Shown: piece after piece, positions 2,815-21,390 of the stretch | How positions within the stretch are numbered: position 1 is the stretch's first letter | How the letters are laid out: every line of letters starts with the position of its first letter | Assembly: GCA_965215275.1 (NCBI GenBank) | Contig: OZ244044.1 | Location: 560,855 to 624,854 of the forward strand | Direction: 5' to 3' | Origin: Thermodesulfobacteriota bacterium | GTDB taxonomy: Bacteria; Desulfobacterota_D; UBA1144; Nemesobacterales; JAJCZQ01 | DNA length: 64,000 bases | Program-made: the position numbers and the translations under genes | The notes under the pieces: model-generated | Database searches by the model: none | Told to the model about the DNA's origin: nothing | What the model saw: only the letters and a program-made list of their open reading frames with translations

Positions 2815-3142
2815 ATGAGCAAAAAAATCGCAAAGCCTGACTATACAAGACGAAACCACCGAATTTCTTCTCTACACGGCTCCGGAGGGAGGAATAAAAG
2901 TTGAGGTTATTCTGAACAGCGAGACTATCTGGTTAACCCAGCAGCGTATGTCCGATTTGTTTGGAGTAAGTCGCACAAGTATTGGAAGGCATCTAAAAAA
3001 TATCTTTGCAGCAGGAAAATTAGACGAAGACGTGGTATGTGCAGAAATTGCACATACCACTAAGCACGGTGCAATTCCGGGCAAAACTCAAAAAAGATTG
3101 GGTGCGATTTATACCTTGCAATTTGCTCTGACTTGGTGCAAA
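2815..3142 (+). pseudogene. RhuM-family (virulence protein RhuM-like) N-terminal remnant, frameshifted near its start and truncated after ~100 residues
   Basis: An in-frame open stretch 2819..3142 reads DETTEFLLYTAPEGGIKVEVILNSETIWLTQQRMSDLFGVSRTSIGRHLKNIFAAGKLDEDVVCAEIAHTTKHGAIPGKTQ. This matches the conserved RhuM N-terminus (TxDG..K.EV..EnETvWLtQ.QmaELF......I.eHlKNIF.eGEL...s.C.eF..t...G...GKTQ). An ATG at 2815 (MSKKIAKPDY...) is in another frame, suggesting a frameshift. The homology ends where the ATPase begins. Confidence 0.45.
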
Positions 3143-4327
3143 ATGCAAGGTATGTTAAAAAGATGGATTACAAACAGGCTTCAGAGAAATATCGCACGGA
3201 ATCCGGCCGTGGTACTTCTTGGTGCACGTCAAGTAGGTAAAACGACGCTTGCTCAACATATATCTGAAAGCATGAACTCAATATACCTCGATCTGGAAGC
3301 TCAGGAAGATCTATTAAAGCTCAGTGACCCCACCAGTTTTTTAAAAAGTCATAGTGACAAACTTATAATACTTGACGAAATACAGCGTGCACCTGATCTG
3401 TTCATGGTTCTACGCGGACTGATCGATAAGAACCGTCAGCAGGGCCGCAATGCTGCACAGTTTCTTCTGCTAGGTTCAGCATCAATGGATTTGCTACGGC
3501 AATCCTCGGAAAGCCTTGCAGGTCGAATCAGTTACATCGAAATGACCGGTCTTAATGTACTTGAGATTGGTAAGGAAAAACAAAACATCCAGAGCGTATG
3601 GCTGCGCGGAGGATTTCCTATAAGCTATCTCGCACAAGACGATGATATGGCCATGGAATGGCTCGAAAACCTTATACGAACTTATCTGGAACGGGATGTT
3701 CCACAAATGGGTTTTAACGTCTCAGCCAGCAAGTTACGTCGTCTCTGGACAATGCTAGCGCACCTGCAAGGTGAAACGGTTAATGTGAGTAAGCTGGCTG
3801 CAAACCTTGAAGTGGGACGTTCAGCCATAAACCATTACATAGATATCCTTACCAACCTGTTACTGGTCCGGCGCATTGAACCGTGGCACGCCAACATCAA
3901 AAAGAGACTGGTGAGATCACCGCGATATTATGTACGTGATAGCGGCATCCTGCACCGCTTGCTGGGTATTGGAAATTACGATGCGTTGCTGTCCAATCCC
4001 ATACTTGGCAAAAGCTGGGAAGGGTTTGTCGTCGAGAACATCCATTCTGTACTGCCACCACTTGCCGAAACATATTTCTACCGTACATCAGCTGGAGCAG
4101 AAATCGATCTGGTCATCAAAATGCCAAATGCGGAAGTATGGGCTGTGGAAATTAAGCACGGCGTTGCTCCCAAGCTAGGCAAACATTACAGCCAGACGTG
4201 CAACGACGTCGGTGCCACGCATAAATACATCGTCTATGGTGGTGATGATGTATTTACTGTCGGAGATAGCATTACAGTTATTTCCCTGCCAAAGATCATG
4301 GAAAAGCTTATTTTCTGCCAGTCATGA
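3143..4327 (+). CDS. AAA+ ATPase of the COG1373 family (AAA_14 + DUF4143). The ORF is open in frame from 2948 (or 2819) through the RhuM remnant, so it may be a chimeric fusion
   Basis: Walker A AVVLLGARQVGKTTLAQ and Walker B KLIILDEIQRAPDLF are present. The C-terminal half (WHANIKKRLVRSPRYYVRDSGILHRLLGI...EGFVVENI) is typical of DUF4143 and carries a PD-(D/E)xK-like D...EIK core (EIDLV...AVEIKHG). Start ATG at 3143 (MQGMLKRW) was chosen by homology onset. The ORF track gives 2948..4327. Confidence 0.7.
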   Translation: MQGMLKRWITNRLQRNIARNPAVVLLGARQVGKTTLAQHISESMNSIYLDLEAQEDLLKLSDPTSFLKSHSDKLIILDEIQRAPDLFMVLRGLIDKNRQQGRNAAQFLLLGSASMDLLRQSSESLAGRISYIEMTGLNVLEIGKEKQNIQSVWLRGGFPISYLAQDDDMAMEWLENLIRTYLERDVPQMGFNVSASKLRRLWTMLAHLQGETVNVSKLAANLEVGRSAINHYIDILTNLLLVRRIEPWHANIKKRLVRSPRYYVRDSGILHRLLGIGNYDALLSNPILGKSWEGFVVENIHSVLPPLAETYFYRTSAGAEIDLVIKMPNAEVWAVEIKHGVAPKLGKHYSQTCNDVGATHKYIVYGGDDVFTVGDSITVISLPKIMEKLIFCQS

Positions 4328-4486
4328 TGCATTTGAAACATTCAGCGAGGAACAATTTTTGCCAATGCTATATTCCATATGGACTAGTTGTTTTTAGTTT
4401 GTCGGGAATCTCCACCTAACTGGAATAGTTTTTTCACTCTTGTAAATTTATAATATCTATGCTAAAAAACTATTTGGAGACTAACT

Positions 4487-6511
4487 ATGGATGAGTCGGC
4501 TAAAACAGGGGAACAACTGTTTCGAGAAGTTATAAAAGTCAACAACGAATCTGATATTCAAACCCGATTATATACTATTTTGTCTCATATTACGGGACAA
4601 GAGTGGTTAACAGAACATAATTATGGTACTGGACCCATTGATTTGCTCTGTCCTGCTTGGGGGATCGTTATTGAATGCAAGAAACGCGGTTCCGTTGATC
4701 CTAATCTTCCAGGACACAAAGGGAATGAGACTCAAAAAGGTCAACTTGAAAGATATTTATCAGATGTGGAAAAACCTTTATATAAATATCAGTTGGTGGG
4801 TTTTTTAACAGATGGTATCTCTTGGTGGGGATATAATTGGAGCGATTATGAAAGAAAAGCTATCCCACTTATCAATTATCCATCTCGAAAAGATATAAAT
4901 AGCTATGATGAACTCAAGGATTTTATGGAAAATATCCCTGAGTTAAAACAAAATAAATCGTCTGGTTACAAGGTTAAACCCCCTGAAAATCTTGGTGAGT
5001 TACTGTTCGACCCATTGACTAAAAAAATAACAGACATTCAAAGAAAAATGGAACAAAAAAAGGAATTCAAGACAAAGTTGATTCTCTGGGAAAATGTCTT
5101 AAAGGGTTCAGGAATTACTCCACCAGGCACACTGAAAAAATACGAAGTATTCGGATTGCACAGTCTTTTAGTTATTACTTCACGCTTACTGATTGGAATA
5201 TTGAACAATGAAAATGATGTAGAAAACTTGCTTACAACCAGTGGCGATGGTTTTCAGGGATGGCTGTTGGAAACGCATGAAGGCGAAAAATTAATAAAAG
5301 AAAAACTGTATAAGGAATTATTAAAATATGATTGGCAGGGTGTTACAAAAGATATATTAAAAGCAGTTTATCATTCACTTATAGATAAAGAACATCGTAA
5401 AGAGTTTGGAGAATACTATACACCTGATAACTTGGCAGAAATAGTAGTGGAGGAAGTATTAGATGATGACTGGTGCGATAATGCTATAAAACGAGTAGCA
5501 GATATACTTGATAATCCAAAAGAGGCAGATTCATCCCATCTGGGCATGCTTGATCCTTCTTGTGGTTCAGGAACATTTCTCTTTCATGCAGCACAACGTA
5601 TCTATAATAGAATTAGGGAAAAACATAGACACGAATTCCATAGAGCAGCTGAAATTACAGCAAGGCTTGTACACGGAATTGACATACATCCAGTAGCCGT
5701 GGAAATGGCTAAAGCTACTTTGTCTATGGCACTTCCAAATTCAAGGGATTTACATTTACGGGTAATACTGGCTGATGCTATGCAATCAGAAGAAGTTGGA
5801 GCATTGCCACTCGACATTACCATAGACCCATTTGGTAAAAAGGGGTTTATTTTCCCCCGTGCAATCATTACACATAAGAAGGCAAATCAAATTATAGAAT
5901 GTGTTGTATCTGCAGCAGTAAGAGAAGACGAAAAAAAACTAGAACAAGTCAGCTCTTTTGTTGAAGAATCATTAATTAAAAAGTTATATGGTAATCTGGT
6001 TGATTTAATCAGAAATGAGGGTAATCACGTATGGAACTGGTATTTATTGAATATAATAGCAAGTGCCAATTTGAATCGGTATGGAGTGGACCGTATAGTG
6101 GGTAATCCCCCTTGGCTGGTAGCAAATGATACTCCAGAGGGACAAAGAAAAGCTAAAATAGACCGCCTACGTAAAGAAGAAAGTGTTAAACCAAAATTCA
6201 ACAGTTCTGCAAAAGGAGACCTCGCAAGTGTGTTCACGGCACGAGTAACAGGACTGTATGCTTCAAAGGAAGGAACTCGTTATGGATGGATATTACCTGG
6301 GTCAGCTATTATTGGTCAAACTTGGAATAAGTGGCAAGAAGGGATATGGGGACATGCTAAAGTAAAACACGAGTTTGCATGGAGCTTAGATAAAATTGAA
6401 CCTCCTGTTTTTCCGCATTCTCCAAATGGAACCTGTGTTTTTATTGGACAAACCACTTCTCCCCCCCCCCCCCACAAAAAACTATTGTGCAGATATGGGA
6501 AGGTACTCTAG
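4487..6511 (+). CDS. Type IIG (MmeI-like) single-chain restriction-modification enzyme, N-terminal PD-ExK nuclease + gamma-class N6-adenine MTase part; reading frame ends just after a C13 tract
   Basis: Nuclease-like motif GPIDLLCPAWGIVIECKKRG (D...E.K). MTase motif X EYYTPDNLAEIVV, motif I MLDPSCGSGTFLFHA and motif IV IVGNPPWL are present in gamma-class order. GC (~35%) is far lower than the flanks. A stop follows 13 codons after the C13 tract at 6461..6473. Confidence 0.7.
   Translation: MDESAKTGEQLFREVIKVNNESDIQTRLYTILSHITGQEWLTEHNYGTGPIDLLCPAWGIVIECKKRGSVDPNLPGHKGNETQKGQLERYLSDVEKPLYKYQLVGFLTDGISWWGYNWSDYERKAIPLINYPSRKDINSYDELKDFMENIPELKQNKSSGYKVKPPENLGELLFDPLTKKITDIQRKMEQKKEFKTKLILWENVLKGSGITPPGTLKKYEVFGLHSLLVITSRLLIGILNNENDVENLLTTSGDGFQGWLLETHEGEKLIKEKLYKELLKYDWQGVTKDILKAVYHSLIDKEHRKEFGEYYTPDNLAEIVVEEVLDDDWCDNAIKRVADILDNPKEADSSHLGMLDPSCGSGTFLFHAAQRIYNRIREKHRHEFHRAAEITARLVHGIDIHPVAVEMAKATLSMALPNSRDLHLRVILADAMQSEEVGALPLDITIDPFGKKGFIFPRAIITHKKANQIIECVVSAAVREDEKKLEQVSSFVEESLIKKLYGNLVDLIRNEGNHVWNWYLLNIIASANLNRYGVDRIVGNPPWLVANDTPEGQRKAKIDRLRKEESVKPKFNSSAKGDLASVFTARVTGLYASKEGTRYGWILPGSAIIGQTWNKWQEGIWGHAKVKHEFAWSLDKIEPPVFPHSPNGTCVFIGQTTSPPPPHKKLLCRYGKVL
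6461..6473 (+). repeat. Homopolymeric C13 tract followed by A-rich run, at the junction of the two RM reading frames (putative slipped-strand phase-variation switch)
   Basis: Direct count gives cccccccccc ccc at 6461..6473, then acaaaaaa. The ORF1 frame terminates 39 nt downstream. A +1 (C14) or -2 (C11) change restores the full-length ORF. Confidence 0.9.
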
Positions 6512-7371
6512 ATGCTCCAACCATCTCTGAAAAATTCGTCAGAGAATCAAAAAAGTCTTATTATCTTGATAAATTTCGAAGAGGGGCAATGTCATCTCCT
6601 TATGCCCTTTTAATAATAATAAATTCGGAAGAAAAAAAGAACGGTCTTGTAAATGTTCAGTTCAACATAGGAACCAAGACCCCTTGGAAAGGTTTAAATA
6701 TGACAGCAACCGTAGAGAAAGATGCTTTATTATCTATTGTACGCAGTCAAGAACTCAAGGCTTTTAAGACAGAAACTAATAAGACTTTCTTTTTAGCACC
6801 TTTAGAAAAAGGTAAATTACTTTCTCCAGACAGGCAAAAATATAAAGATAACTATCCAAAAACATTAGATTATTGGAAACGGGCAGATAAGATATATAGA
6901 TGTCATCGCTCCAGTAAAGCAGGAGAAACCCTGTTTGATAATCTGGATTGGAAAGGGACTTTATCAACACAACTTGAACCTGCGAAAAAGGAACGTAAGT
7001 TCAAAGTTATATATAACAAATCAGGAAATATCCTACAAGGGGCAATTGTTTCAGGGAAACAAGTTGTCCATGAATCAGCTTATTATCTTGTAACTGATTA
7101 TATGGAGGAAGCTCTATATCTTTGTGGAATTATAAACGCACCTGTTATGCAGGATGTCTGGCAAGAGAGTAAAACATCAAAGATAGCTTTTGATAAAAGT
7201 CCTTGGAGGCATGTTCCTGTTCCCAGATATAAGCCAAATAATAAAGAACATAAGGCAATCGTCAGTGCGGCAAAAGAAGTAGAGCAAGCACAAAATCCAT
7301 CCGACAAACTGGATATATTGAACGAACCGGTTCAAACACTGTTACAAGATTTTCTTTTCAACAGCCCATAA
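6487..7371 (+). CDS. C-terminal (probable target-recognition domain) part of the same Type IIG enzyme, in the +1 frame relative to 4487..6511
   Basis: This frame is open from 6400 and also reads through the poly-C as ...NHFSPPPPQKTIVQIWEG. Adding one C makes a single ~965-aa ORF (...TTSPPPPPQKTIVQIWEGTLDAP...), the size of MmeI-family enzymes. It has the same low GC as the upstream part. The track start at 6487 is GTG; the true product is probably the fused protein. Confidence 0.55.
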   Translation: MQIWEGTLDAPTISEKFVRESKKSYYLDKFRRGAMSSPYALLIIINSEEKKNGLVNVQFNIGTKTPWKGLNMTATVEKDALLSIVRSQELKAFKTETNKTFFLAPLEKGKLLSPDRQKYKDNYPKTLDYWKRADKIYRCHRSSKAGETLFDNLDWKGTLSTQLEPAKKERKFKVIYNKSGNILQGAIVSGKQVVHESAYYLVTDYMEEALYLCGIINAPVMQDVWQESKTSKIAFDKSPWRHVPVPRYKPNNKEHKAIVSAAKEVEQAQNPSDKLDILNEPVQTLLQDFLFNSP

Positions 7372-7692
7372 TTAGCGTTTTATATAGCAGGGTTTTATTG
7401 CTCATATACAACACCATATTATGCATCTGGACAATATTGAAAATATAATAATGGGCAGAAAGAGATAACAACAGCAATAAACCTAATCCGTGTTGTAAGA
7501 TAAACCATTTATTAGAAAGTTAAGAATTAAAGGAAATTATAATATTTTGTCAATTTTCCTTAATAATTTCCCCAAAATTACTTGCAGGAAATGTTTTAGC
7601 TTAACAGATGATATCATATCTTCTTCCGTGAAGCAGAAAAATGCTATAAGAATCACTTCATTATAAGAGTTGCAGATAATGTTTTAAGGCAA

Positions 7693-7720
7693 TTGTCGGG
7701 AGACCATAAAAACAGCCTCC
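7693..7720 (-). terminator. Candidate hairpin downstream of the merT-like gene (tcgggag-N14-ctcccga)
   Basis: There is a perfect 7-bp inverted repeat at 7693..7720 just 3' of the minus-strand operon end (7729). The loop is long and there is no clear U-tract, so this is weak. Confidence 0.25.
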
Positions 7721-7728
7721 CGAACTGA

Positions 7729-8142
7729 TCAATAAAAAATATGGACCGCAATAAAGGCAAAAAAGAATCCCGCTATATATAAAAATCCAGCAACGCCTAA
7801 AATAATCCAGTTGACCTTACGCAGTCGACTGCACATTTTGGCTTTTGAGGGATTAACTGGACAAGGTGCATGACGTGCTCGCCACTGCATAAACGCTGCC
7901 AGCACTATAAGCACGCCTGACACTGCAAAAACCACACCTTTATAATCAGATATAGCAGTGATCCATGGTGCAGCACCGACCAGTCCAGCCAGAACCGACC
8001 CCATGCTGAGCGTCACCAGCAAAGCAGGCAACGCACAGCAGAGCAGCGTTCCAACGGAAGTGAAAAGGCTCAGTGACGGCAGAACCGTCTGCTGCCACAG
8101 GTAAGACCCATTATTATTCCCCATACCTGATCTCCCGTACAT
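7729..8142 (-). CDS. merT: MerT-like inner-membrane metal (mercuric-ion type) transporter
   Basis: TM1 carries a Cys pair, LLCCALPALL (MerT has ...SACCLGPL...). A second cytoplasmic-loop Cys pair is present, HAPCPVNPSKAKMCS. Size (137 aa) and 3-TM hydropathy pattern match MerT. Confidence 0.6.
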   Translation of the reverse strand: MYGRSGMGNNNGSYLWQQTVLPSLSLFTSVGTLLCCALPALLVTLSMGSVLAGLVGAAPWITAISDYKGVVFAVSGVLIVLAAFMQWRARHAPCPVNPSKAKMCSRLRKVNWIILGVAGFLYIAGFFFAFIAVHIFY

Positions 8143-8424: not shown

Positions 8425-9069
8425 TTAATATCTAAAAACGTAATTGAATAAAACTTCGCCACGATTGTTCACGCCAGCCTCTATCAGGTGAACATACTTG
8501 AAAAAGCGAACAAGCGGCGTAACGGTAAAGTCGTCGTCCGCCTCGGGCACATGCTTGACCTGCAGCATAAACCACGTATGAAGGTCGTCATAATCCCCTT
8601 TATAAGGAGCCCAGCCGACACGAGCGGATTGCTGAAAAAAATCATCGATCTTGCCAGCCTCGGTGTAGCGATTTTCATACGATACGAAATAACGACGGTT
8701 TTCCCAGTCAGCGGCAATTCCCGCAAAGCCCGCGGCACTGGTCTCTCCGTCAAATTCACCAGCATAACTGTAAGCCACACCAACGCCAGACTTGAGGTAA
8801 AGACTGGCCTGCGAATCCGGGTTGTTCCATCGCTTGAGGAGGTTATTCATCTGAACGGCATTTAAAGTAAACTCCTTGTCCCTCCAGTATTCAAACCTAT
8901 AACCCAGTGATGTCCTTACAGTGGGTGAGTAATGAACGTGGGCACTGTTTCTGTACCCGTCATTCATTAACATCAACGTCCAGCCGCCCGGATATGACAC
9001 CGGTCGTGCCTGAACAATACTTGGGATAATCAGCCCCATCCCAAGAAGGGCATATAATAGAAATCGCAT
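8425..9069 (-). CDS. Small outer-membrane beta-barrel protein (signal peptide, C-terminal aromatic residue), first large gene of the mer-like operon
   Basis: Signal peptide MRFLLYALLGMGLIIPSIVQA. It has an alternating amphipathic beta-strand pattern and a terminal ...LFNYVFRY. No specific family recognised. Confidence 0.4.
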   Translation of the reverse strand: MRFLLYALLGMGLIIPSIVQARPVSYPGGWTLMLMNDGYRNSAHVHYSPTVRTSLGYRFEYWRDKEFTLNAVQMNNLLKRWNNPDSQASLYLKSGVGVAYSYAGEFDGETSAAGFAGIAADWENRRYFVSYENRYTEAGKIDDFFQQSARVGWAPYKGDYDDLHTWFMLQVKHVPEADDDFTVTPLVRFFKYVHLIEAGVNNRGEVLFNYVFRY

Positions 9070-9132
9070 ATTGTTCTCCTGCTTTGCGATTAAAGTTAGC
9101 GCCGAAAAAATCGCAGCTTATGTAAGCAAAAA

Positions 9133-9526: not shown

Positions 9527-9781
9527 CTAACCATCGGAATCTTTATTGTGATCTGGGTTTCTGCCTTGATTCTTGCGGTAGGTAGCAAGCCGTTCAGCCT
9601 CTTTTTTCTTGGCTCCGTCTTTAGTCATCCGTCTTGATGTAACTTTCATGTGACCGAAATTCTTACCCTCTTTCCGATGCTGTCGCTCGCGTCTGTCTGG
9701 GTCATTGGTTGTGCCAACATAAAGAACCTTATTCCCTTGCTTTAATTCATAAGTAAACGTATCTCGTTTTTTCGCCATCAC
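9527..9781 (-). CDS. Mini GIY-YIG nuclease-domain protein (84 aa)
   Basis: TFTYELKQGNKVLYVGTTNDPDRRERQH fits the GIY-(x10)-YIG...R..xH core. The tail is lysine/arginine-rich. Confidence 0.45.
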   Translation of the reverse strand: MMAKKRDTFTYELKQGNKVLYVGTTNDPDRRERQHRKEGKNFGHMKVTSRRMTKDGAKKKEAERLATYRKNQGRNPDHNKDSDG

Positions 9782-10086: not shown

Positions 10087-10384
10087 ATAACAAAACACAG
10101 CTGGGGCACTGACTCATGCCCTTTAATAAGTAGCCGCCAGACGACCCCAGAAGTCGCTCCATTTTTCTTGGTAGATAATGACTTTCGCTGGCGTGTATGT
10201 GAGTACGACTGCAATCTTTCCTATTTTACTGACTTTGTTATCAACCGGGTATCCGAAGACCATAGTTTCAATGACCCGGAATACCATCTCTGGTTTAAGG
10301 TCCTCCAAGATCTCCGCAGCATAGAAAACCTGGTTATTGCTCCGGGCAGCAGCACGGACGAACAGGAACGACCAAAGGAGACCT

Positions 10385-13300
10385 ATGCTCAAATTTGAAG
10401 ACATTAAAAAAGACGCTCAAATCCGGGGTCTGGAAGGCGACAAGATCGTCCGGGTCGTCAGTTGTGAACTCGTTGGAACGGATGCCGTCAACATTTTCTA
10501 CGTAGACCCTGATGGTAAACCTGGAACCCAGATGCTGTTCCGTTCGGACGAGTCGCGGTTAGAACAGGCCAAAGCTGGTCGTCCCTGGTCATTTGATGCA
10601 CCGGGCGCTGAATTTAAACTCGGACTGGAAGCCTACCGCATCAGCCTGGCTCATCTGTTTGATCCGATGATGGCGGTACATACGTCCAGCATAGAACCGC
10701 TTCCTCATCAGATATCTGCAGTGTACGAGTCTATGCTGCCACGCCAGCCGCTGCGCTTTGTACTGGCCGATGATCCCGGCTCAGGTAAAACCATCATGAC
10801 CGGGCTTTACATTCGTGAACTGCTGATGCGCTCGGATGCAAAACGCATTCTTATAGTCTCGCCTGGTTTCCTGTCAGAGCAGTGGCAGGATGAACTGCTG
10901 GAAAAATTCGGCCTTCACTTCGAAATATTCAGCCGCGAGAAACAGGAACAATGTGCATCAGGTAACTTCTTCGAAGAGCAGAATCAGCTCATTGCCCGAC
11001 TGGATCAGTTATCCCGCAACAATGACTATCAGGAAAAACTCAAAGTCACCGACTGGGACCTGATCGTGGTGGATGAGGCACACAAGATGTCCGCCCATTA
11101 CTTCGGCAGCACGGTCAAAGAAACCCGCAGGTTCAAACTGGGCAAATTGCTGGGTTCCATAACACGGCATTACCTGCTGGTAACAGCCACCCCGCACAAC
11201 GGCAAGGAAGAAGACTTTCAGTTGTTCATGTCTCTGCTGGATGGCGACCGTTTTTACGGTAAATTCCGTGAAGGTGCACACAAGGTCGACATCGACGACA
11301 TGATGCGCCGCATGGTCAAAGAAAACCTGCGCAAATTCGATGGCACCCCGCTATTTCCTGAGCGCAGAGCCTATACGGCCAATTACGAACTCTCCGATCA
11401 GGAAGCAGCACTTTATGACGATGTGACAGAATACGTGCGCGAAGAAATGAACCGGGCAGACAAACTCGACGATAAGAAGAAAAACACCGTCGGTTTTGCA
11501 CTGACCCAGTTGCAACGCCGCCTGGCATCCAGCCCAGAGTCCATATATCAATCCCTCAAGCGCCGCCACAGAAAGCTGGAAGACCAACTCAAAGAGATGA
11601 AACTGGTCGCCAGGGGTCGATCGATCAATAAAAAGGGGGTTGCTGAAACCCTGGATGAATATGTCGTCAGAAAGCAGATAGATGTTCCCGACAATCTCGA
11701 CGAAGCCTACGATGAACTTACCGGCGAAGAATACGAAACTTTTGCTGAAGAAGTAGTGGACCAGTCCACCGCTGCTGCCACCATTCCAGAACTCGAAGCC
11801 GAGATCAGTATTTTGAAGAAACTGGAGCCCAAGGCGCACGAGGTCGTGCAATCTGGCAGCGACAAAAAATGGGAGGAGCTTTCCAGCCTGTTACAGGACT
11901 CTCCGGAAATGGGTATCAGCGTCCCACGGAACAAATCAGGTAATCGACTTAAACTAATCATCTTCACGGAATACAGAGATACTCTGACCTATCTGGTAGA
12001 CCGCATAAGAGGTTTGATCGGCCGCCCCGAGTCCGTGGTATCCATACAGGGCGGAACCAACCGTGATGACCGGCGCAAAATACAGGAAGAGTTCCGCAAC
12101 AATCCCGATGTACTGATCATGGTTGCCACCGATGCTGCTGGTGAAGGTGTGAACCTGCAAAATGCCCATCTGATGGTCAACTACGACCTGCCGTGGAATC
12201 CCAATCGCCTGGAGCAGCGTTTTGGTCGCATCCACCGTATCGGTCAAACTGAGGTCTGTCACCTCTGGAACATTGTCGCAGCCAAGACCCGCGAAGGTGC
12301 GGTATTTCAAAAACTGCTGGACAAACTGGACGTGGAGCGCGAAGCACTGGGTGGCAAAGTTTTCGATATTCTGGGTGAAGCCTTTGAAAATATCTCACTC
12401 AAGGATTTGTTGCTGGAAGCTATCCGCTATGGAGAGCAGCCAGAGGTCAAAGCCAAACTCTATAAGGTTATTGATAACGCACTGGACACCGCCCATCTGA
12501 AAGAGATTATTAAACGTAACGCACTGGTAGAGCAAAGCATCGGACTTGATCAGTTCTACGCAGTTAAAGAAGAGATGGAAAAGGCAGAGGCACGCAAGCT
12601 GCAGCCCTATTTCATCCGAGCCTTTTTTACCGAGGCCTTCGGTACCCTCGGTGGCAAGATGCACAACAGGGAAACCGGCCGCTTTGAAATCCGCCATGTG
12701 CCCGCATCCATTCGCGAGCGTGATCGGGTAATCGGTGAAACCCTCACCCCTGTACTGAAAAAATACGAACGCGTCTGTTTCGAGAAACAACACCTGAGCA
12801 TTCAAGGTAAGCCCATGGCCGACTTACTGCACCCGGGTCATCCGCTCATGCAATCAGTAACCGATATAGTACTTGAAGCACACAGAAAAAAACTGAAACA
12901 AGGTTCGGTGCTAGTTGACCCCAATGATAACGGCATTGAGCCAAAAGTACTCTTCATGATCGACCACAGCCTGCGTCAAAGTGTCAATGGAACAAGGAGC
13001 GGAAAAGATGTTGTCGTTTCCCGTCGATTGCAGTTTGTCGAAATTAATCAGCACGAAGAGGTCGTTAATGCAGGCTGGGCACCTCACCTTGATCTGCAGC
13101 CTATCGATGACAACGACCATGGTCTGGTTAAGGATGTTTTAGACGCACCATGGATCACCGACAACCTTGAAACACTGGCACTCAAGCATGCGTCAACCCA
13201 CCTAGTGCCAGAACACTATCAAGAGGTAAAAACACGACGCGAGGAACAAGTCGATAAGATCCATGCCGCTGTACGTGAACGCCTGGTTAAAGAGATCGGC

Positions 13301-13963
13301 TACTGGTCCGGGCGTTATATAAAACTCTCTGATGACGTTAAGGCTGGAAAGCAGCCACGTGTGCAGCCCGAGATGGCCAAGCGGCGATATGAAGAACTCA
13401 CCGCCAGGCTAGAACAACGGGAGAAAGAACTCATCGCCATGCGCAGCGTGGTTTCCGGCAGTCCAGTCGTAATAGGTGGCAGCCTGATCATCCCGCAGGG
13501 CATGCTGGCACAGCACAAAGGTGAGACCAATTTCACTGCTGATGCAGCCTCTCGTTCCCGTATTGAGCAAATCGCCATGGATGCCGTCATTAAAACGGAA
13601 AAAGCCTTTGGACATGAAGTCAAGAACATTGCAGCGGACAAATGCGGCTGGGACGTCACCGCAAGACCACCTGCTGTTAACGGCAAGCTGCTGGAGGACC
13701 GACATATTGAGGTCAAAGGCAGAGCTAAAGGCCAGAGCACAATAACGGTAAGCCGTAATGAGATCATATATGGGCTAAATCAAGCCGAAAAATTCATCCT
13801 GGCCATTGTGATCGTAGACGGCGATAGCTATGAAGAACCTTACTACATCAAATATCCGTTTTCTCAGGAACCGGGTTTTGGGGTGGCGAGTATCACTTTC
13901 GACCTAAAGGACTTGATATCCAAGGCAGTGGCACCAGAACAAACATTACAGGTGGTGGAATAA
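10385..13963 (+). CDS. SNF2/SWI2-family helicase with C-terminal DUF3883 (restriction-endonuclease-like) domain; first gene of the candidate defence operon
   Basis: Motif [15 protein letters not shown], motif [19 protein letters not shown], and the helicase-C block [16 protein letters not shown]...[22 protein letters not shown]. The C-terminus CGWDVTAR...[10 protein letters not shown]...ITVSRNEI...ILAIVIVDG is typical of DUF3883. GGAG RBS aaaggagacctATG at 10385. The track start 10337 adds 16 aa with no RBS. Confidence 0.8.
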
Positions 13964-16819
13964 ATGAGCACAAAAATTAAAACTCCAAAGAAACTCATTG
14001 AGGTGGCACTGCCATTAGATGATATTAGTTCAGCAAGTATTAAGGAAAAAAACGGATCCATAAAAGGGCATCCACGTGCACTTCATTTATGGTGGGCAAG
14101 ACGACCTTTGGCAGCAGCCAGGTCCATTCTGTTTGCACAACTGGTAAACGACCCTGGTGGATCATGTGGACATTATCCAGGTATGACGAAGGAAAAAGCC
14201 AGGATAGAGCGCGAAAGACTGTTTGATATCATGAGGCAATTAGCCAAATGGGAAAACATTAATAACGATGATCTTCTAAAAACCGCTCGACAGGAAATAC
14301 TGAAAAGTTGGGCCTCAACATGCAAAATAACAGGTGACGATCCAAATGTTATGCCTCCGGTCCTTGATCCTTTTGCCGGTGGTCATTCCATACCGATCGA
14401 AGCACAGAGATTAGGATTAAAGACCCTAGGTACTGACCTAAACCCGGTAGCAGTTACCATTGGCAAAGCATTAATTGAAGTTCCTGCCCGTTTCCATGAC
14501 AAGGAACCCATTGGTCCTCTTCCTGAAGGTTTAAAACAAAATGATCTACTCGACCAATGGAGTGGCACACAGGGTTTGTCCGAGGATATAAAAAGGTACG
14601 GCACGATGCTTTATGATCTGGCAAAGCAGAAGATCGGTCATCTTTATCCAGCCATAAAACTGCCTAAAGAACTTGGTTCAACTGAATCTAGCGTTATAGC
14701 ATGGATCTGGGCCAAGACAACTAAGTGTCCTAATCCAGCTTGTGGTGCAGAAGTGCCATTAATCAGGTCATTCGAACTTTCTGAAAAGAAAGGAAAAAAG
14801 GCAAGAATAGAGGCCGTGATAAACAGAGACACCGATCCTCCATCAATTTCTTTTAAGGTCCATATGGACGATCAGCCCGCCGAAGCAAGAAACATAAGCA
14901 GAGCAGGTGCGAAATGCCTGTGTTGTGGTTCTCTTGTACCACTGAAGAGTATTAAAAAACATGGTAAAGAAGGGGGCATCGGTACTCGACTTATCGCTAC
15001 TGTGTGTAATACAGAAAGTGGCCGAGTTTATGTGACACCAGACGCAACACAGGAAGAAACAGCTAAATCCGTTTCACCTCATAATTATCCTTATGATTAT
15101 CCTTCATCACAATTACCTGATAAAGCTATAAGTTTCAATGTCCAAATTTATGGCATTACCAGACACTCACAACTGTTTACAGATAGACAATTACTGCTAT
15201 TGGGGACTTTGTTCGAACTCCTTACTGATATTAGAGAACAGGTCTTAAAAGATGCAATAAGCAGTGGTTTTGAGCATGGGAATAGACTTTCAGAAGGTGG
15301 AACCGGTGCTGAAGCTTACGCTGATGCTATTATACTTTATCTTTCACTTTCTATTTCCCAATGCACGAGTTATCACTGTATAAATGCTCGTTGGGTAAAA
15401 CATAGCCAGCGTATTGCTCATGCCTTCGGACGCCAAGCAATCGTCATGAGTTGGGATTTTGCCGAGAGCAACCCTTTTTATGGACCTTTAACCATTACCA
15501 CTGCAGTCAAGCGGGTAGCTTCATCTTTGGCGAACGTGGACCCATATACATGTGGTTCGGTTTCACAACGAAATGCTAATAGTAATAACGACAAATTAAA
15601 GGACGTGATAATTTCTACCGACCCACCATACTATAACAACATTGGGTATGCAAACCTGTCTGACTTTTTTTACGTGTGGCTTCGCCTTGGGTTAAGAGAT
15701 GTTTTTCCAAGACTTTACTCAACCATTACAGTCCCAAAATCAGATGAATTAGTTGCTGAACCATATAGACATGGAGGCAAAAAGAATGCTGAATCCTTTT
15801 TTTTGGAAGGAATGACCGGAGCCATGTCAAATATGGCAGAGATATCCCATCCCGCATTCCCAGTAACAATTTACTACGGCTTTAAACAGTCCGAATCAAG
15901 TTCGGCAGGAACTGCTTCAACCGGATGGGATACCTTCTTGCAAGCCGTCATTTCTGCAGGTTTTACCATTACCGGAACATGGCCACTTAAGACGGAGAGT
16001 CCCACAAGGCTTCTGAGCCAAGGAACTAATACATTAACCTCATCTATCGTATTGGTATGTCGAAAAAGATCTACACACACCGAAGCAATTTCCAGACGTC
16101 AATTCCAGAGGGAATTACGTGAGGAGATGTCTGAAGCATTAGAAGAAATGATCGGTGGAAGCGAAGGCTCATCGCCAGTAGCTCCCGTAGATCTGGCACA
16201 AGCCGCAATTGGTCCTGGCATGGCAATCTTCTCCAGATACTCAGCGATCTTGAACCAAGATGGCTCACCTATGACCGTTCATGAAGCCTTAATTTTAATT
16301 AATCGAGAGATCACTGAATATCTAAACCCTGAAAGCGGCAGGTTTGATGAAGATACCTTGTTTTGCTCTTCATGGTTTGATCAGTACGGCTGGTCAGAGG
16401 GTAAATTCGGAGAAGCCGACACCTTGGCTCGAGCAAAGGGTACGTCCGTAGATGGCGTAAGGGATGCTGGTGTAATAGAATCAGGAGCTGGAAAAGTTCG
16501 ATTATACCGCTGGGAAGAGTATCCAGCAGAGTGGAACCCTTATCAAGACAATCGCACTCCCGTTTGGGAGGCACTCCATCATATAATCCGTGTCCTTAAC
16601 CAAAAAAGTGAATCAGATGCAGGTTTTTTACTTGCTCGTATGCCAGAGCGTGGTGAATCCATTCGCCAGCTTGCTTATCACCTCTACACACTATGTGAGC
16701 GTAAGAACTGGGCTGAGGAAGCCAGGGCTTATAACGAGTTAATTTCTGCCTGGCATGACATTGTCGCTGCATCACACAACGTTGGACATATCGGATCGCA
16801 AACCGAACTTGAGATTTAA
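13964..16819 (+). CDS. DUF1156 (COG1743) Zn-ribbon-containing DNA methyltransferase (N6-adenine/N4-cytosine type)
   Basis: N-terminus PKKLIEVALPLDDISSASIKEKNGSIKGHPRALHLWWARRPLAAARSILFAQL is the DUF1156 signature. SAM motif VLDPFAGGHSIPIEAQRLGL. Catalytic motif IV VIISTDPPYYNNIGYANLSDFFYVW. Zn-ribbon CPNPACGAEVP...CLCCGSLV. Its ATG abuts the stop of the helicase (gaaTAAATGagc). Confidence 0.8.
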   Translation: MSTKIKTPKKLIEVALPLDDISSASIKEKNGSIKGHPRALHLWWARRPLAAARSILFAQLVNDPGGSCGHYPGMTKEKARIERERLFDIMRQLAKWENINNDDLLKTARQEILKSWASTCKITGDDPNVMPPVLDPFAGGHSIPIEAQRLGLKTLGTDLNPVAVTIGKALIEVPARFHDKEPIGPLPEGLKQNDLLDQWSGTQGLSEDIKRYGTMLYDLAKQKIGHLYPAIKLPKELGSTESSVIAWIWAKTTKCPNPACGAEVPLIRSFELSEKKGKKARIEAVINRDTDPPSISFKVHMDDQPAEARNISRAGAKCLCCGSLVPLKSIKKHGKEGGIGTRLIATVCNTESGRVYVTPDATQEETAKSVSPHNYPYDYPSSQLPDKAISFNVQIYGITRHSQLFTDRQLLLLGTLFELLTDIREQVLKDAISSGFEHGNRLSEGGTGAEAYADAIILYLSLSISQCTSYHCINARWVKHSQRIAHAFGRQAIVMSWDFAESNPFYGPLTITTAVKRVASSLANVDPYTCGSVSQRNANSNNDKLKDVIISTDPPYYNNIGYANLSDFFYVWLRLGLRDVFPRLYSTITVPKSDELVAEPYRHGGKKNAESFFLEGMTGAMSNMAEISHPAFPVTIYYGFKQSESSSAGTASTGWDTFLQAVISAGFTITGTWPLKTESPTRLLSQGTNTLTSSIVLVCRKRSTHTEAISRRQFQRELREEMSEALEEMIGGSEGSSPVAPVDLAQAAIGPGMAIFSRYSAILNQDGSPMTVHEALILINREITEYLNPESGRFDEDTLFCSSWFDQYGWSEGKFGEADTLARAKGTSVDGVRDAGVIESGAGKVRLYRWEEYPAEWNPYQDNRTPVWEALHHIIRVLNQKSESDAGFLLARMPERGESIRQLAYHLYTLCERKNWAEEARAYNELISAWHDIVAASHNVGHIGSQTELEI

Positions 16820-16834
16820 AGGAGGATAAGAACA

Positions 16835-19669
16835 ATGACGATCAAACCCTGGCGTGAAATTATAAAACCTCACAAAGATGTGCTCGAGGGTACGTTCAAG
16901 CAATCTGAATTTGCAGCCGATATCTCTCAGGTGGCCTCCTGTACAGCAACCGATGAATACCAAGACCCAGAGAAGTTCTTTGCCCGCACATTCATTACGG
17001 AGGGCATGCGCCTGTTATTAATTTCCGTTGCTCAGCGACTGGCTGGTCAGGGTGGCGACCCTGTTATACAACTGCAAACCGCTTTTGGTGGTGGCAAGAC
17101 CCATACCATGCTGGCCGTGTTCCATATGGCTGATCGAAAAGTCAGCACCGATAAACTGGCAGGTATCCCTACTGTCCTTGATGAAGCAGGTATTTCTCAA
17201 TTGCCTCGTGCCAAGGTCGCCGTACTGGATGGTATTAAACTCTCCCCAAGCCAACCGCTTGATCACGATGGCCTGACCGTTAATACCCTGTGGGGTGAAC
17301 TGGCCTGCCAACTTCTAGGCAAAGCTGGATATAACAAAGTAGCACAAGCGGATCAGGATGGAACATCACCAGGTAAAGACGTTCTGGTGGATCTGCTGAA
17401 CGAAGCATCTCCATGTGTGGTACTGATCGATGAACTCGTTGCTTTCATCCGTCAGTTCGATATTGGTAAGCAGTTCAATGCCGGAACTTTCGACAGCAAT
17501 ATCTCGTTCATCCAGGCACTCACTGAAGCTATGAAATCGGTTCCTGATGCCATTCTTTTAGCCTCCCTACCCGCGTCTGATCTTGAGGTCGGTGGTAACA
17601 TGGGTCAAAGAGCATTGAACTCTCTTGAGCAATATTTTGCACGTGTGGAATCCGTCTGGAAACCGGTTGCCACCGAAGAAGCTTTTGAGATCGTCAGACG
17701 CCGTCTGTTCGATACCGTTGACGACAGCACTGAACTTGAAAACGTATGTAAGCGTTTCGCTGATCTCTACCGGGACAACAGCGACAAGTTCCCATCGGAT
17801 ACCCAGTCCAGTCACTATCAGGACCGACTACGTCAGTCCTATCCTATTCATCCGGAAATCTTTGACCGGCTGTATGAAGACTGGTCCACACTGGATAAAT
17901 TCCAGCGTACCCGTGGCGTATTGCAATACATGGCAATAGTTATCCATCACCTGTGGAATTCTGACAACCGTGACGCACTCATCATGCCTGGTTCTATTCC
18001 AATGTATGACGACAATGTAAGAACCAAGAGCATTCATTATCTGCCGCAGGGATGGGAACCTGTTATTGAGAAAGAAATTGATGGACCAAGATCAGAACCC
18101 TTTAATATTGACGGTCATGACACCCGGTTTGGCAGCGTACAGGCTGCTCGTCGTGCCGCACGTACTATTTTCCTTGGCAGTGCGCCATCGACTGGTGACC
18201 AGATGATCCGCGGGATCAAGGCAGATCAAATCCTGCTGGGAACTTTGCAGCCGGGACAGACGGCTGGTGTATTTGAAGACGTCCTGCGCCGCTTACGTGA
18301 CCGATTGCACCACCTCTACTCGAAAGAGGAGCGTTTATGGTTCGATACCAAACCGAACCTTCGGCGCGAAATGGAAAGCCGTAAGCAAAATATCAATGAT
18401 CAGAAGGAGGTACAACCACAACTCAAGGCTCGGGTCACCGGAGTCTTTGGGCGTAATAATTCCTTTGCCGGTATCCATGTATTCACACCATCCGCTGATG
18501 TGCCGGACGAATGGGGAACTGGTCCAAGGCTGGTCGTACTGTCACCAAGATCATCATACAGCCGTGGTGATGATGACAATATGGCCTGTGCTACCGAAGA
18601 GATACTACACAAACGTGGTGAACATCCCCGTCAGAAACAGAACCGTTTGATCTTCCTTGCTCCAGACTACGACGTTGTTAGCCGGTTAAGTGATCAGGCA
18701 AGAACCTATCTGGCATGGAAATCCATCCTTGATGATTTCCAGTCGGATAAACTGGTCTATCAAAGTAATCAGCTTGCCGAGGTTAAACGTGCCGTAGAAG
18801 GTGCCGAGCAAACGCTTCAGCGATTAGTCCGTGAAACCTACAAATGGCTGATCTGCCCCGTTGTGGAAGAACCCGTCCGTGGCAAACAACCACTTAAGTG
18901 GGAGACCATCTTGGTATCCCCCACCGCACAGAACCTTGTGCAGGAGATCGAAAACAAACTCCGCGAAGAAGATTGGCTGATATCAGAATGGTCACCCATA
19001 CACCTACGCAACATACTAAACAAGTGGTATTTCAAGGATGGCGTCACAGAGGTCAGTGCACTTAAGGTTTACCAAGACTGCTGCAATTACCTCTATTTGC
19101 CCCGACTACAAAATGACCAAGTGTTAAAGCGTTCCATTGAGCAAGGGCTGAAAACGGAAGACTTCTTTGGTTTCGCAAGAGGCAAGGAAGAAGGCAAATA
19201 CCTCGGATTTGTCTTTGGTAACAACACCATGGTTACTCTGGATGATTCAGAATTACTAATAGAACGTGATGCTGCCGCTGCGTACAAAGAAAGTATTAAG
19301 CCGCCACAGTCAGAACCAGATACCACGGGAGGTAGTGATCAGCCTGATAATACTATTCCACCAAGCGGAGGAACTGCCTCACAACCTGGAGATAAAGTAT
19401 CAGCAAAACCTACTCCGGGAGCAATGGTTAAAAAAGAGTTTTATGGCACGACCACGCTGGAACCTGTCGGTGCAACCATGGAGTTTCAGAAAATCGTGGA
19501 TGAAGTGGTCCAGCAATTTACTTCGAAACTGGGTGTTGAGGTCACAATTACAGTATATATCACAGCTAAATCCCGTGATGGTTTTGATGAATCCATGCAA
19601 CGTTCGATCAAGGAAAACTGTAACGTGCTCCAGTTCAGTAGTGCGGAATTTGAGGAAGGTGAGCAATAA
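16835..19669 (+). CDS. DUF499 (COG1483) AAA+ ATPase
   Basis: N-terminus [33 protein letters not shown]...[15 protein letters not shown] is the DUF499 signature. Walker [15 protein letters not shown] and Walker [15 protein letters not shown] aaggaggataagaacaATG. Confidence 0.8.
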
Positions 19670-19926
19670 TTGACTTTGCCTCGCTCTTAAATACTACAGA
19701 CAAGATCAATAAGGTGGATAAAATCACAAAAAAGCCGTTTAGCAGACAGGAGCAAAGGAACCAAAGTTTATTTGTTTTACAAATACACATAAATTAGAAT
19801 CAAAGAGAACATCTCCTCCACCATTACTGGAACTGTTAATATTCTATACAAGTGCACATCATGTTCTGGGATTGAGCATGGTAAAAACAATGAAAGACAC
19901 AGATAATCAGCAGTAAAGAGAATAGT

Positions 19927-20682
19927 GTGAACAAAAAAAACGTGACAAATAACAAGGTTTTAATGCCTGCTATTGAAAAGGTGGAACAATCTGATTCTGT
20001 CTATCCCAGTCGCTTGCTCACCGTATTGAAAAACAAAGCACCAACAACACTTTATTTACAAGGGAATATCAGCCTTCTGGAAATGGATGGAATCGGATTT
20101 TCCGGGTCCAGAAATTCCAGTCAAAATGGAATAGATACAGTCAGAGACTGTGCTGAGCAAGCTGCCAATGCCGGGCTCGCCGTAATCTCCGGCAATGCCG
20201 CAGGCATAGACCTTGAAGCACATTATCACGCGCTCTCCGCGAATGGCTCGACCATTCTCGTTATTCCAGAAGGAATTAACCATTTCCGAATAAAGCGTGC
20301 ACTGGTACCCGTCTGGGATTGGGAGCGTACACTCGTAATCAGTCAATTCAACCCTGACGATGCATGGAAAAATTATCGTGCTATGAAACGTAATCAGGTG
20401 ATCATTGGTTTAAGCAAAGCAATGATCGTCATCGAGGCTGGAGAAAAAGGCGGGACCATGAATGCCGGGATGGAGACACTTAAACGTGATACCCCTCTCT
20501 ACGTGGCTGAATACCAGGATATGTCAGTTGATGCTCGGGGCAACAAAAAACTACTTGAGCTTGGTGGAAAGCGGCTGGCTCGCAGCCGTTCAACAGTCCG
20601 TGCGAATATGAAAAATGTCTTTGATGATGTTACTAGAGACCCTGCAAACCAATCCCATCAAGATCAGACAGGACTTATTTAG
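19927..20682 (+). CDS. DprA/Smf-like (SLOG-superfamily Rossmann) protein, short form without obvious C-terminal wHTH
   Basis: DprA core GIGFSGSRNSSQNGIDTVRDCAEQAANAGLAVISGNAAGIDLEAHYHALSANGSTILVIPEGINHF...NQVIIGLSKAMIVIEAGEKGGTMNAGMETLKRDTPLYV. Track start is GTG at 19927; ATG at 19963 (MPAIEK) is an alternative. It is separated from the DUF499 gene by a 257-nt AT-rich spacer. Confidence 0.65.
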   Translation: MNKKNVTNNKVLMPAIEKVEQSDSVYPSRLLTVLKNKAPTTLYLQGNISLLEMDGIGFSGSRNSSQNGIDTVRDCAEQAANAGLAVISGNAAGIDLEAHYHALSANGSTILVIPEGINHFRIKRALVPVWDWERTLVISQFNPDDAWKNYRAMKRNQVIIGLSKAMIVIEAGEKGGTMNAGMETLKRDTPLYVAEYQDMSVDARGNKKLLELGGKRLARSRSTVRANMKNVFDDVTRDPANQSHQDQTGLI

Positions 20683-20752
20683 TTGTGAATTACTGATGTC
20701 TGAAGATAAACCGTCACAAGGTTATTAAAAGTATACAGTCCACTTTTTATTT

Positions 20753-20845
<93 letters not shown>

Positions 20846-20918
20846 TTTAAGCTAATTGAAATAATGGCACGTTAAAGTCTGCAGTTAAAGTTAAAACCCC
20901 GTGCTATATTTCCTGAGT

Positions 20919-21299
20919 TTACTTAGGACGGCACTTGCAGATATCAACCCTGATGTACTCAACTACGTTGGTTATATCTTCAGATGTAAGCGTGCCTTCC
21001 CATGGAGGCATCAGGAAAGACTTTCCAACTGAAGGACCTCCCTTGCTTATAACCTTTATAAGATGTGCGTCACTTAAACCAGACACGTAATCAGCACTGC
21101 TCAGGTCCCTCGGTTTTGGATTAAGGGCAGCTGCCGCCACACCATCACCTTTACCACCCATGCCATGACAGGAAGCACAGATGTTGTTATATATTACCTT
21201 GCCCTTTGAAGCATCGGCGGCGTGGCTATTTGAGGCAGTGGTAAAACTCAATCCTGAAAATATCAAAAACAATAAGATAGCACTTAATCCTTTATTCAA
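20919..21299 (-). CDS. Class I c-type monohaem cytochrome (c6/c552-like), secreted
   Basis: Signal peptide followed by haem motif ICASCHGMGGKGDG (CxxCH). Distal Met candidate ...FLMPPW. 126 aa. Confidence 0.75.
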   Translation of the reverse strand: MNKGLSAILLFLIFSGLSFTTASNSHAADASKGKVIYNNICASCHGMGGKGDGVAAAALNPKPRDLSSADYVSGLSDAHLIKVISKGGPSVGKSFLMPPWEGTLTSEDITNVVEYIRVDICKCRPK

Positions 21300-21390
21300 A
21301 ATCCTGCCTCCCGACTTTTTTCTAAATCCTAAACTTTACCACAAATTTATATTGGTAAAAAATTTTTATATGGGAATAATTATTTTAAAC

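Follow-up and report, generated by a model that had tools for sequence, protein, structure and literature searches.

A probable orphan antitoxin of the PsyrA/ShosA class beside a phosphoribosyltransferase toxin pseudogene downstream of an Hma operon

The stretch of DNA analyzed here, which will be referred to as the window, comprises 64,000 nucleotides from a Thermodesulfobacteriota bacterium (assembly GCA_965215275.1, contig OZ244044.1, positions 560,855 to 624,854 of the forward strand), and the gene in question encodes a 251-aa DprA-like protein. This gene lies between the last gene of an Hma (helicase-methylase-ATPase) operon and a tRNA gene (Table 1), and its start codon is separated from the HmaC stop codon by 257 bp, with no gene of ~289 aa upstream of it in the window. 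An earlier, sequence-only reading had described an open reading frame (ORF) with the DprA Rossmann core, apparently without the C-terminal winged helix-turn-helix of competence DprA and placed in a defense context, and had considered three roles for its product, i.e., a fourth component of the defense operon, a regulator, or an unrelated cargo gene, such domains having been proposed as nucleotide or ssDNA sensors in defense islands.

Table 1. Genes and other features at the locus, with positions in the window
Feature	Position	Strand	Evidence and remarks
HmaA, SNF2 helicase with NOV_C nuclease-like C-terminus	10337..13963	+	PADLOC full-length, E 0; Pfam
HmaB, DUF1156 N6-adenine methyltransferase	13964..16819	+	PADLOC E 0; PF06634
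HmaC, DUF499 ATPase	16835..19669	+	PADLOC E 0; stop overlaps former toxin start codon
Phosphoribosyltransferase toxin pseudogene	19666..19916	+	tblastn, translations, DNA alignment, blastn against L080, partner profile
DprA-like (PsyrA/ShosA-class) antitoxin gene, intact	19927..20682	+	GTG start, 251 aa; Rossmann-fold-only minimal form
tRNA-Ser(GGA)	20755..20845	-	ARAGORN, Rfam; 72 bp past the DprA-like stop

The description of the protein itself was confirmed on each of these points. The translation contains the motif GSRNSSQNGIDTVRDCAEQAANAGLAVISGNAAGIDLEAH, and a Pfam scan recovered neither DprA_WH nor a SAM domain, the sole domain being PF02481 (DNA_processg_A; E 2.9e-41, residues 19-214). 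The AlphaFold2 (AF2) model, which was built with 48 homologs and has a predicted local distance difference test score (pLDDT) of 91 and a predicted template modeling score (pTM) of 0.88, consists of one Rossmann-type domain that begins at residue 17, while two short helices and a disordered tail make up the C-terminus. When this model was compared with the Protein Data Bank (PDB) by Foldseek, the matches included the DprA of S. pneumoniae (3UQZ, E 8e-17) and ShosA (8ZVA, E 1e-15), as well as the DprA proteins of R. palustris and H. pylori (3MAJ and 4LJR being among the DprA matches), and MoCo-carrier and LOG proteins, which belong to the SLOG superfamily, ranked after DprA and ShosA, so that the DprA/SLOG identity proposed from the letters also stands at the level of predicted structure.

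On the other hand, the protein falls under the equivalog thresholds of both NCBIfam models, with 126.7 bits against a cut-off of 191.15 for TIGR00732 and 83.4 bits against a cut-off of 495 for NF008007. Its best PADLOC models are PsyrA and ShosA, and not those of Hma; PsyrA (PDLC03927) is the top model (E 8.9e-54, 181 bits, profile positions 97-310 of 398), and ShosA scores lower (E 1.1e-33, 115 bits). The window gene is thus a DprA-fold protein that is not canonical competence DprA.

Homology searches placed the protein in a well-conserved family of ~250-aa proteins, in which 37 positions are invariant in an alignment of 48 members. All 37 residues are retained in the window protein, including R62 and R155, which align to R139 and R234 of ShosA, although the alignment with ShosA is restricted to residues ~103-260 of the latter. 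A disordered C-terminal tail ending in Q-x-x-L-L is also conserved in the family. The members are distributed patchily over phyla, with ~50-90% identity, and their contexts vary, as is usual for mobile cargo. No protein identical to the window ORF (read from its V, M, or M13 starts) is on record by exact-sequence look-up, blastn of the locus against plasmid sequences matched the tRNA alone, and a scan of viral contigs returned no phage-borne member of this subfamily.

The most informative feature of the family is its genomic neighborhood, which was surveyed in 79 loci from species-representative genomes with ORFs called, 77 of them being assessable for a partner gene. In the great majority of the 79 loci, the DprA-like gene is directly preceded, on its own strand, by a gene of ~270-300 aa, and the genes in this position are mutually homologous. 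A hidden Markov model (HMM) built for this partner located a gene with a phosphoribosyltransferase (PRTase) domain adjoining the DprA-like gene in ~70 of the 77 assessable loci, the orientation being sometimes divergent in the distant actinobacterial members. All-against-all clustering of the neighbors left the PRTase gene as the sole conserved one, with every other family present in no more than 4 loci. Given this, the DprA-like gene makes up the “A” half of a two-gene PRTase/DprA-like cassette, an architecture found widely among the Proteobacteria, Acidobacteria, Actinobacteria, and Chloroflexi.

The partner protein (~289 aa), whose database copies are mostly labeled “hypothetical protein”, is composed of an N-terminal domain of ~130 aa and a PRTase domain, with no helicase. 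The phosphoribosyl pyrophosphate (PRPP) loop motif hhhhDDxxQSG is invariant, and the matches to PF00156 are weak. The PsyrT model of PADLOC is matched over its PRTase portion (positions 537-686 of 689), and the ShosT model weakly and over the PRTase part only (E 2e-6 to 5e-4). The AF2 model of the partner (pLDDT 92.6) has H. pylori ComF as its best PDB match, followed by ShosT (8ZVC/8ZVB/8ZVD; E ~3.5e-4 and TMq 0.39-0.42 for 8ZVC and 8ZVD in Foldseek) and then by PurF, PRPP synthetases, and other PRTases, while a profile search of the PDB by sequence alone gave sub-threshold matches at the PRPP loop only.

The 257 bp upstream of the DprA-like gene, which the sequence-only reading had passed over, are not a plain spacer but what is left of a deleted partner gene. 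A tblastn search with the intact partner protein of a close relative (L002) produced two matches in one frame, of residues 19-52 at 19728-19829 and residues 270-289 at 19851-19910. The 5' remnant, from 19666 to ~19845, has its ATG changed to ATA, an indel with a frameshift, and in-frame stop codons; its translation includes ...AKEPKFICFTNTHKLESKRTSPP..., and the stops and the change of frame precede this segment in the three-frame translations. The 3' remnant (19849-19916) encodes ...AHHVLGLSMVKTMKDTDNQQ*. The partner HMM has its sole match in the 64-kb window at 19743-19913 (E 5e-8); a second toxin or antitoxin copy in the window was considered and rejected. The substitution that removed the toxin start codon also yields the current TAA stop of HmaC, as the junction reads TAATG in L002 and CAATAA in the window; comparing window 19664-19669 with L002 2774-2778, the HmaC of the window is one codon (Gln) longer.

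When aligned as DNA with the partner genes of L002 and L001, which are intact, the window was seen to lack ~650 bp, and the deletion may be delimited through the sister locus (L080, GCA_964348445.1), whose DprA-like protein is 94% identical to that of the window and which keeps an intact PRTase gene of 275 aa. The two loci are collinear, with 94-96% nucleotide identity, over HmaA/B/C, the DprA-like gene, the tRNA-Ser, cytochrome c, SurE, VTT, TonB, and more. By blastn, window 19669-19840 corresponds to L080 9124-9297 and window 19849-21366 to L080 9923-11435, which leaves L080 9298-9922 missing in the window (~625 bp; the lost codons are approximately 55-270, among them those of the PRPP-binding loop). 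As this segment is missing and the toxin gene of L080 is intact, the sequence downstream of HmaC is a toxin pseudogene and the DprA-like gene has been orphaned, the ancestral order being hmaABC-PRTase-dprA-like, as it still stands in the sister genome. An assembly artifact was also considered as the cause of the deletion and rejected, since the remnant has a lost start, an indel, and stop codons in addition; a 30-mer spanning the deletion junction was absent from the metagenome contigs.

The spacer itself has no Rfam match and folds without unusual structure (z = 0.67), and a scan for promoters and terminators at 19300-21000 gave nothing beyond the expectation from shuffled sequence. With no promoter or terminator predicted between hmaC and the DprA-like gene, read-through from hmaC is probable, and the DprA-like gene is probably co-transcribed with hmaABC.

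The loss of the toxin with retention of the DprA-like gene is not peculiar to the window. An intact DprA-like gene accompanies a decayed toxin in L049, where there is only a C-terminal remnant, and in L054 and L010, where the toxin is frameshifted, and the toxin is wholly absent beside an intact DprA-like gene in L003, L006, and L089. The recurrence of toxin decay with the antitoxin kept is the asymmetry expected of a toxin-antitoxin pair, in which toxin loss is tolerated.

The linkage of the cassette to Hma and to other restriction-like systems depends on the phylogenetic depth at which it is considered. Among close relatives, i.e., metagenome assemblies with 73-94% identity, the cassette follows the Hma triad in L002, L080-82, L084, L088, and L092, and it follows a DUF499-DUF3780-DUF1156-PLD-helicase(-Mrr) system in L083, L085/86, and L091; where the two abut (L002, L084, L088), the HmaC stop and cassette start codons overlap. 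In every case in this close clade, the DUF499 system and the DprA-like gene have the PRTase gene between them. Among the 79 species-level loci, Hma or any DUF499-system gene stands beside the cassette in a single one (L002). The proposed co-occurrence with DUF499/DUF1156 genes therefore holds in the close relatives and not in the family at large. Elsewhere, the cassette is overlapped, stop to start, with a type III-like methyltransferase gene (L017, L020, L033, L045), or it follows BrxL (L015), type IIG enzymes (L042, L046), or housekeeping genes such as IF-2/NusA, IleRS, and GcvP, or it stands behind divergent genes, with gaps of 100-400 bp. Because the upstream genes are divergent or housekeeping in many loci, with such gaps, the cassette is autonomous there. 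The simplest reading is that of an autonomous mobile cassette which gathers in defense islands, often fused to the 3' end of restriction-like operons, and functional coupling to BREX-related systems is unnecessary to explain the data.

PRTase/DprA-like pairs are an established class of toxin-antitoxin and anti-phage systems (Millman et al., preprint, 10.1101/2022.05.11.491447; Rousset et al., PMC9122126; Russell and Mulvey, PMC4670107; Pu et al., PMC11961720; Yang et al., PMC12961424). Given all of the above, the 251-aa protein is interpreted here, with a probability of roughly 80%, as the orphaned antitoxin of a decayed PRTase-toxin/DprA-like-antitoxin cassette of the type IV toxin-antitoxin (abortive infection) kind, and not as a fourth component of Hma. 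Neither a free-standing sensor nor a dedicated fourth component is supported by a survey in which PRTase is the sole conserved neighbor; the third of the original options, an unrelated cargo gene, came closest, with the difference that the cargo is a defense gene which has lost its partner.

The mode of action may be outlined by analogy with ShosTA and RqlHI. The PRTase of these systems is a PRPP-binding protein that disturbs purine metabolism and brings about DNA damage and filamentation, whereas the DprA-like protein of ShosTA does not bind the toxin but binds ssDNA and RecA and counters the damage; the antitoxin is labile, and the shut-off of host expression or the presence of phage ssDNA releases the toxicity (PMC11961720, PMC12961424, PMC4670107). 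By homology, the window protein would likely be a dimeric ssDNA-binding protein that repairs or prevents, together with RecA, the DNA damage caused by the PRTase, and it would not be expected to bind the toxin directly, as is the case of ShosA. For an intact cassette, infection would free the toxin, either through the loss of the labile antitoxin or through phage ssDNA, and thereby lead to abortive infection. As the toxin is gone, the cassette of the window is unable to cause abortive infection, and the orphan may still bind ssDNA and RecA. Its persistence may reflect a recent loss of the toxin or some benefit, such as the neutralization of related PRTase toxins or assistance in recombination.

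Several observations weigh against this interpretation. The toxicity of the partner and its neutralization by the window protein are drawn from homology, whereas the analysis itself shows the fold, the conservation of DNA-binding residues, the pairing with a PRTase, and the deletion in the toxin gene; the links of the partner to ShosT and PsyrT are weak in sequence (E 1e-4 to 5e-10), with a fold-search E of only ~1e-4. Deletion of the SAM domain destabilized ShosA (PMC12961424), and the window protein has no such domain; the N-terminal region on which RqlI depends (PMC4670107) is likewise missing from it. With 76% nucleotide identity to L080, the 5' toxin remnant is more diverged than the neutral expectation (dS ~0.06-0.23), which suggests an older or recombinant origin, or an estimate that is unreliable on 174 bp. 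Finally, the repeated junction of the cassette with DUF499 systems in close relatives, with overlapping codons, leaves room for functional coupling.

The reading that comes nearest to this one is possible, if rather doubtful, and it concerns the present state of the gene: the orphan may be a functionless relic on its way to decay, unselected since the toxin was lost and intact because the loss is recent. The ratio of non-synonymous to synonymous divergence (dN/dS) from L080 is 0.30 for the DprA-like gene, which is the highest of 11 shared genes (0.07-0.24 in the others), yet well under 1. When the changes were polarized with three outgroups, 8 non-synonymous and 3 synonymous were assigned to the window branch and 7 and 7 to the L080 branch, and the former include K63N, K67N, L113I, and T154K at well-conserved positions. 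This contrast hints at relaxed constraint on the window branch, but it is not statistically significant, with too few changes to separate relaxed from maintained selection. A relic would be in keeping with L095, where both cassette genes are fragmentary, but less so with the other orphans, which have remained intact in several lineages, or with a window ORF of full length, free of frameshifts and unchanged at 37 of 37 invariant positions. The nucleotide identity of the DprA-like gene to L080, 96% as against the 76% of the 5' remnant, also suggests constraint on the gene.

The alternatives that would assign another function to the gene find less room. A genuine accessory or fourth-component role in Hma, whether of the DprA-like protein by itself or together with the PRTase, is improbable; it could be, for example, that of a sensor of ssDNA or one coupled to RecA, or of a reserve abortive-infection arm connected to the DUF499 machinery. 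Such a role would account for the cassettes placed directly after HmaC with overlapping or abutting codons (L002, L084, L088, L092; ~0.7 kb away in L080), after the type-2 DUF499 system, and beside type III-like methyltransferase, BrxL, and type IIG loci, as well as for the absence of a predicted promoter or terminator after hmaC. A parallel is found in Halomonas meridiana SCSIO 43005, where PsyrTA is annotated in a BREX-1 locus, between PglX and BrxC (PMC11232893, Table 1), which resembles the BrxL-adjacent cassette of L015. The role would not account for a DUF499 system in only one of the 79 species-level loci, for the many loci in which the cassette is autonomous, or for a window lineage that dropped the PRTase yet kept Hma. 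Hma is, moreover, defined as three genes, with HmaA alone shown to be the effector (PMC11232893), and the survey that terms the two DUF499 systems type-1 and type-2 BREX-related gives many auxiliary nuclease effectors and nowhere mentions PRTase or DprA (PMC12839542). A more elaborate version, in which BREX-related (DUF499 type-1/type-2), BREX, and type III-like restriction operons would have recruited the cassette through translational coupling as a dedicated backup abortive-infection arm, and the window lineage would have retained the DprA-like half as it also served Hma, e.g., in phage ssDNA sensing or in the RecA-dependent repair of self-damage by HmaA, is just as hard to favor. Least probable is that the gene is the ordinary DprA/Smf recombination mediator of the host, acting in transformation or RecA loading and standing beside the island by chance. 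The fold, the S. pneumoniae DprA as the top match among solved structures, and the conserved ssDNA-binding arginines would fit, H. pylori DprA likewise has no extra domains, and one relative, in L089, lies directly after recR; the scores under both equivalog cut-offs (126.7 against 191 and 83 against 495), the higher score of the PsyrA defense model, the patchy distribution in variable contexts, and the nearly constant pairing with a PRTase gene, the remnant of which adjoins the window gene, all point away from it.

Returning to the orphaned-antitoxin interpretation, the closest known relatives of the cassette differ from it in architecture. PsyrTA/RqlHI (PsyrA being RqlI and PsyrT being RqlH) shares with it the order of toxin first and antitoxin second, the close or overlapping junctions, the best profile match of the window protein, and the PsyrT segment matched by the partner, and the toxicity of RqlH resides in the PRTase domain (PMC4670107). 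Genomes with RqlI only also exist (1.2% of strains; PMC4670107). PsyrA/RqlI, however, has ~400 aa, a C-terminal HTH, and an N-terminal region required for function (PMC4670107), and PsyrT/RqlH is a RecQ-like helicase-PRTase fusion of ~690 aa, unlike the partner with its different N-terminal domain; RqlH and RqlI interact physically. ShosTA of E. coli APEC O1 (ShosA 8ZVA/9VZO, ShosT 8ZVB-D) is likewise a two-gene system of a PRTase toxin and a DprA-like antitoxin. ShosA matches the window protein in fold and sequence, and two arginines without which ShosA neither binds ssDNA nor acts as antitoxin, R139 and R234 (PMC12961424), have their counterparts in R62 and R155. ShosT, which combines a PPase-like N-terminal domain with a non-canonical PRTase, ranks near the top among the structures matched by the partner model. 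ShosA differs in having a SAM domain at its N-terminus, over residues 1-94, as well as the extra helix α14 (PMC12961424, PMC11961720), and the Q-x-x-L-L tail of the window family may parallel its C-terminal instability element (PMC11961720). As the architecture is unlike both, the details of action could differ from those of ShosTA and RqlHI.

Canonical DprA/Smf (TIGR00732; 3UQZ, and 4LJR of H. pylori) has in common with the window protein the Rossmann-type DprA fold and the GSR and RN ssDNA-binding motifs, and dimerization and RecA interaction are probably shared as well. The window protein is set apart by its sub-cut-off scores, the lack of SAM and winged-helix domains (one or both of which occur in most, but not all, canonical DprA proteins), the defense-island context, and the PRTase pairing across the family. 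With Hma, a type-1, DUF499-centered BREX-related system, the gene shares adjacency and probable co-transcription in the window and its close relatives, whereas in PADLOC and the literature Hma is the helicase-methylase-ATPase triad, of which the DprA-like gene is not a part, and the linkage is confined to one close clade. The window protein is therefore neither canonical DprA, nor ShosA or PsyrA/RqlI in the strict sense, and the cassette represents a shorter, third architecture within the PRTase-toxin/DprA-like-antitoxin class.

These results settle the annotation of the gene as an orphan PsyrA/ShosA-class antitoxin beside a PRTase-toxin pseudogene, rather than as “DprA” or a fourth Hma gene. 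They also document a third, minimal architecture (a toxin without a helicase or recognized ShosT-like N-terminal domain, paired with an antitoxin free of SAM and HTH domains), which could help to define the parts of ShosA and RqlI that are truly required for antitoxin action. The locus offers a clean natural case of toxin-first decay, in which the sister genome provides the “before” state, and it draws attention to a recurrent physical coupling of such cassettes to BREX-related operons that is not listed in PMC12839542.

Some variations on the cassette were found in individual loci. Proteins of 836 and 961 aa (L008 7456-9966 and L014 5453-8338) combine an N-terminal DprA-like domain with a C-terminal PRTase, each preceding a second DprA-like gene, and single ORFs of 552 and 494 aa (L026 1202-2860 and L053 170-1654) have PRTase and DprA-like parts apparently fused. 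An 897-aa protein in L004 (7261-9954) has PDC-S15-like and TPR regions fused to the PRTase. In several close relatives (L002 4427-4885, L083 10770-11228, and L087 10758-11216, and also L090, L092, and L093; 82-95% identity), the next gene after the DprA-like one, in the same orientation, is a conserved ORF of 152 aa in which Pfam recognizes no domain. This ORF could be a third cassette gene in that sub-clade; it is absent from the window and L080, where the tRNA-Ser comes next. The orphan DprA-like gene of L089 (590-2029), which is 75% identical and has neither a PRTase gene nor a remnant of one beside it, is found 93 bp downstream of recR, in the same orientation, so that two genes related to RecA loading stand side by side.

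The tRNA gene had been read as the boundary of the island, which was not demonstrated, as neither an att-like direct repeat of the tRNA-Ser 3' end nor an integrase upstream of Hma was found; the placement of the DprA-like gene between the DUF499 gene and this tRNA, in a defense context, was correct. Upstream of Hma, the window has further genes of defense type, with an AAA_14/DUF4143 ATPase gene (2948-4327), a type IIG/Eco57I-like methyltransferase gene (4487-6511) with an overlapping 294-aa ORF, a stretch of low guanine-cytosine (GC) content (36-39% at 4000-8000), and a small GIY-YIG ORF (9527-9781), which is kept in the Hma-bearing L084, ~5 kb downstream of the cassette, with 76% nucleotide identity.

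Finally, the comparison of the window with L080 revealed further differences between the sister loci. HmaB (window 13964-16819, L080 2751-5609) has 89% amino acid identity, with a dS of 0.23 and a dN/dS of 0.24, and HmaA and HmaC have 96% identity and a dS of ~0.14; the divergence of HmaB is consistent with diversification of specificity or recombination inside the island. L080 carries a 659-bp AT-rich insert between HmaC and the toxin gene (8465-9123), with a 61-aa ORF on the minus strand, and a 2.7-kb insert between cytochrome c and tRNA-Leu/SurE (11436-14103), with an N6/N4 methyltransferase and an IS1595 transposase, neither of which is in the window (the junction of the latter is near 21359-21366). 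The collinearity stops at window 26653, beyond which the window may differ, and L080 has a large Csx12-domain (Cas9-like) gene at 19446-20756, right after a luciferase-like gene.

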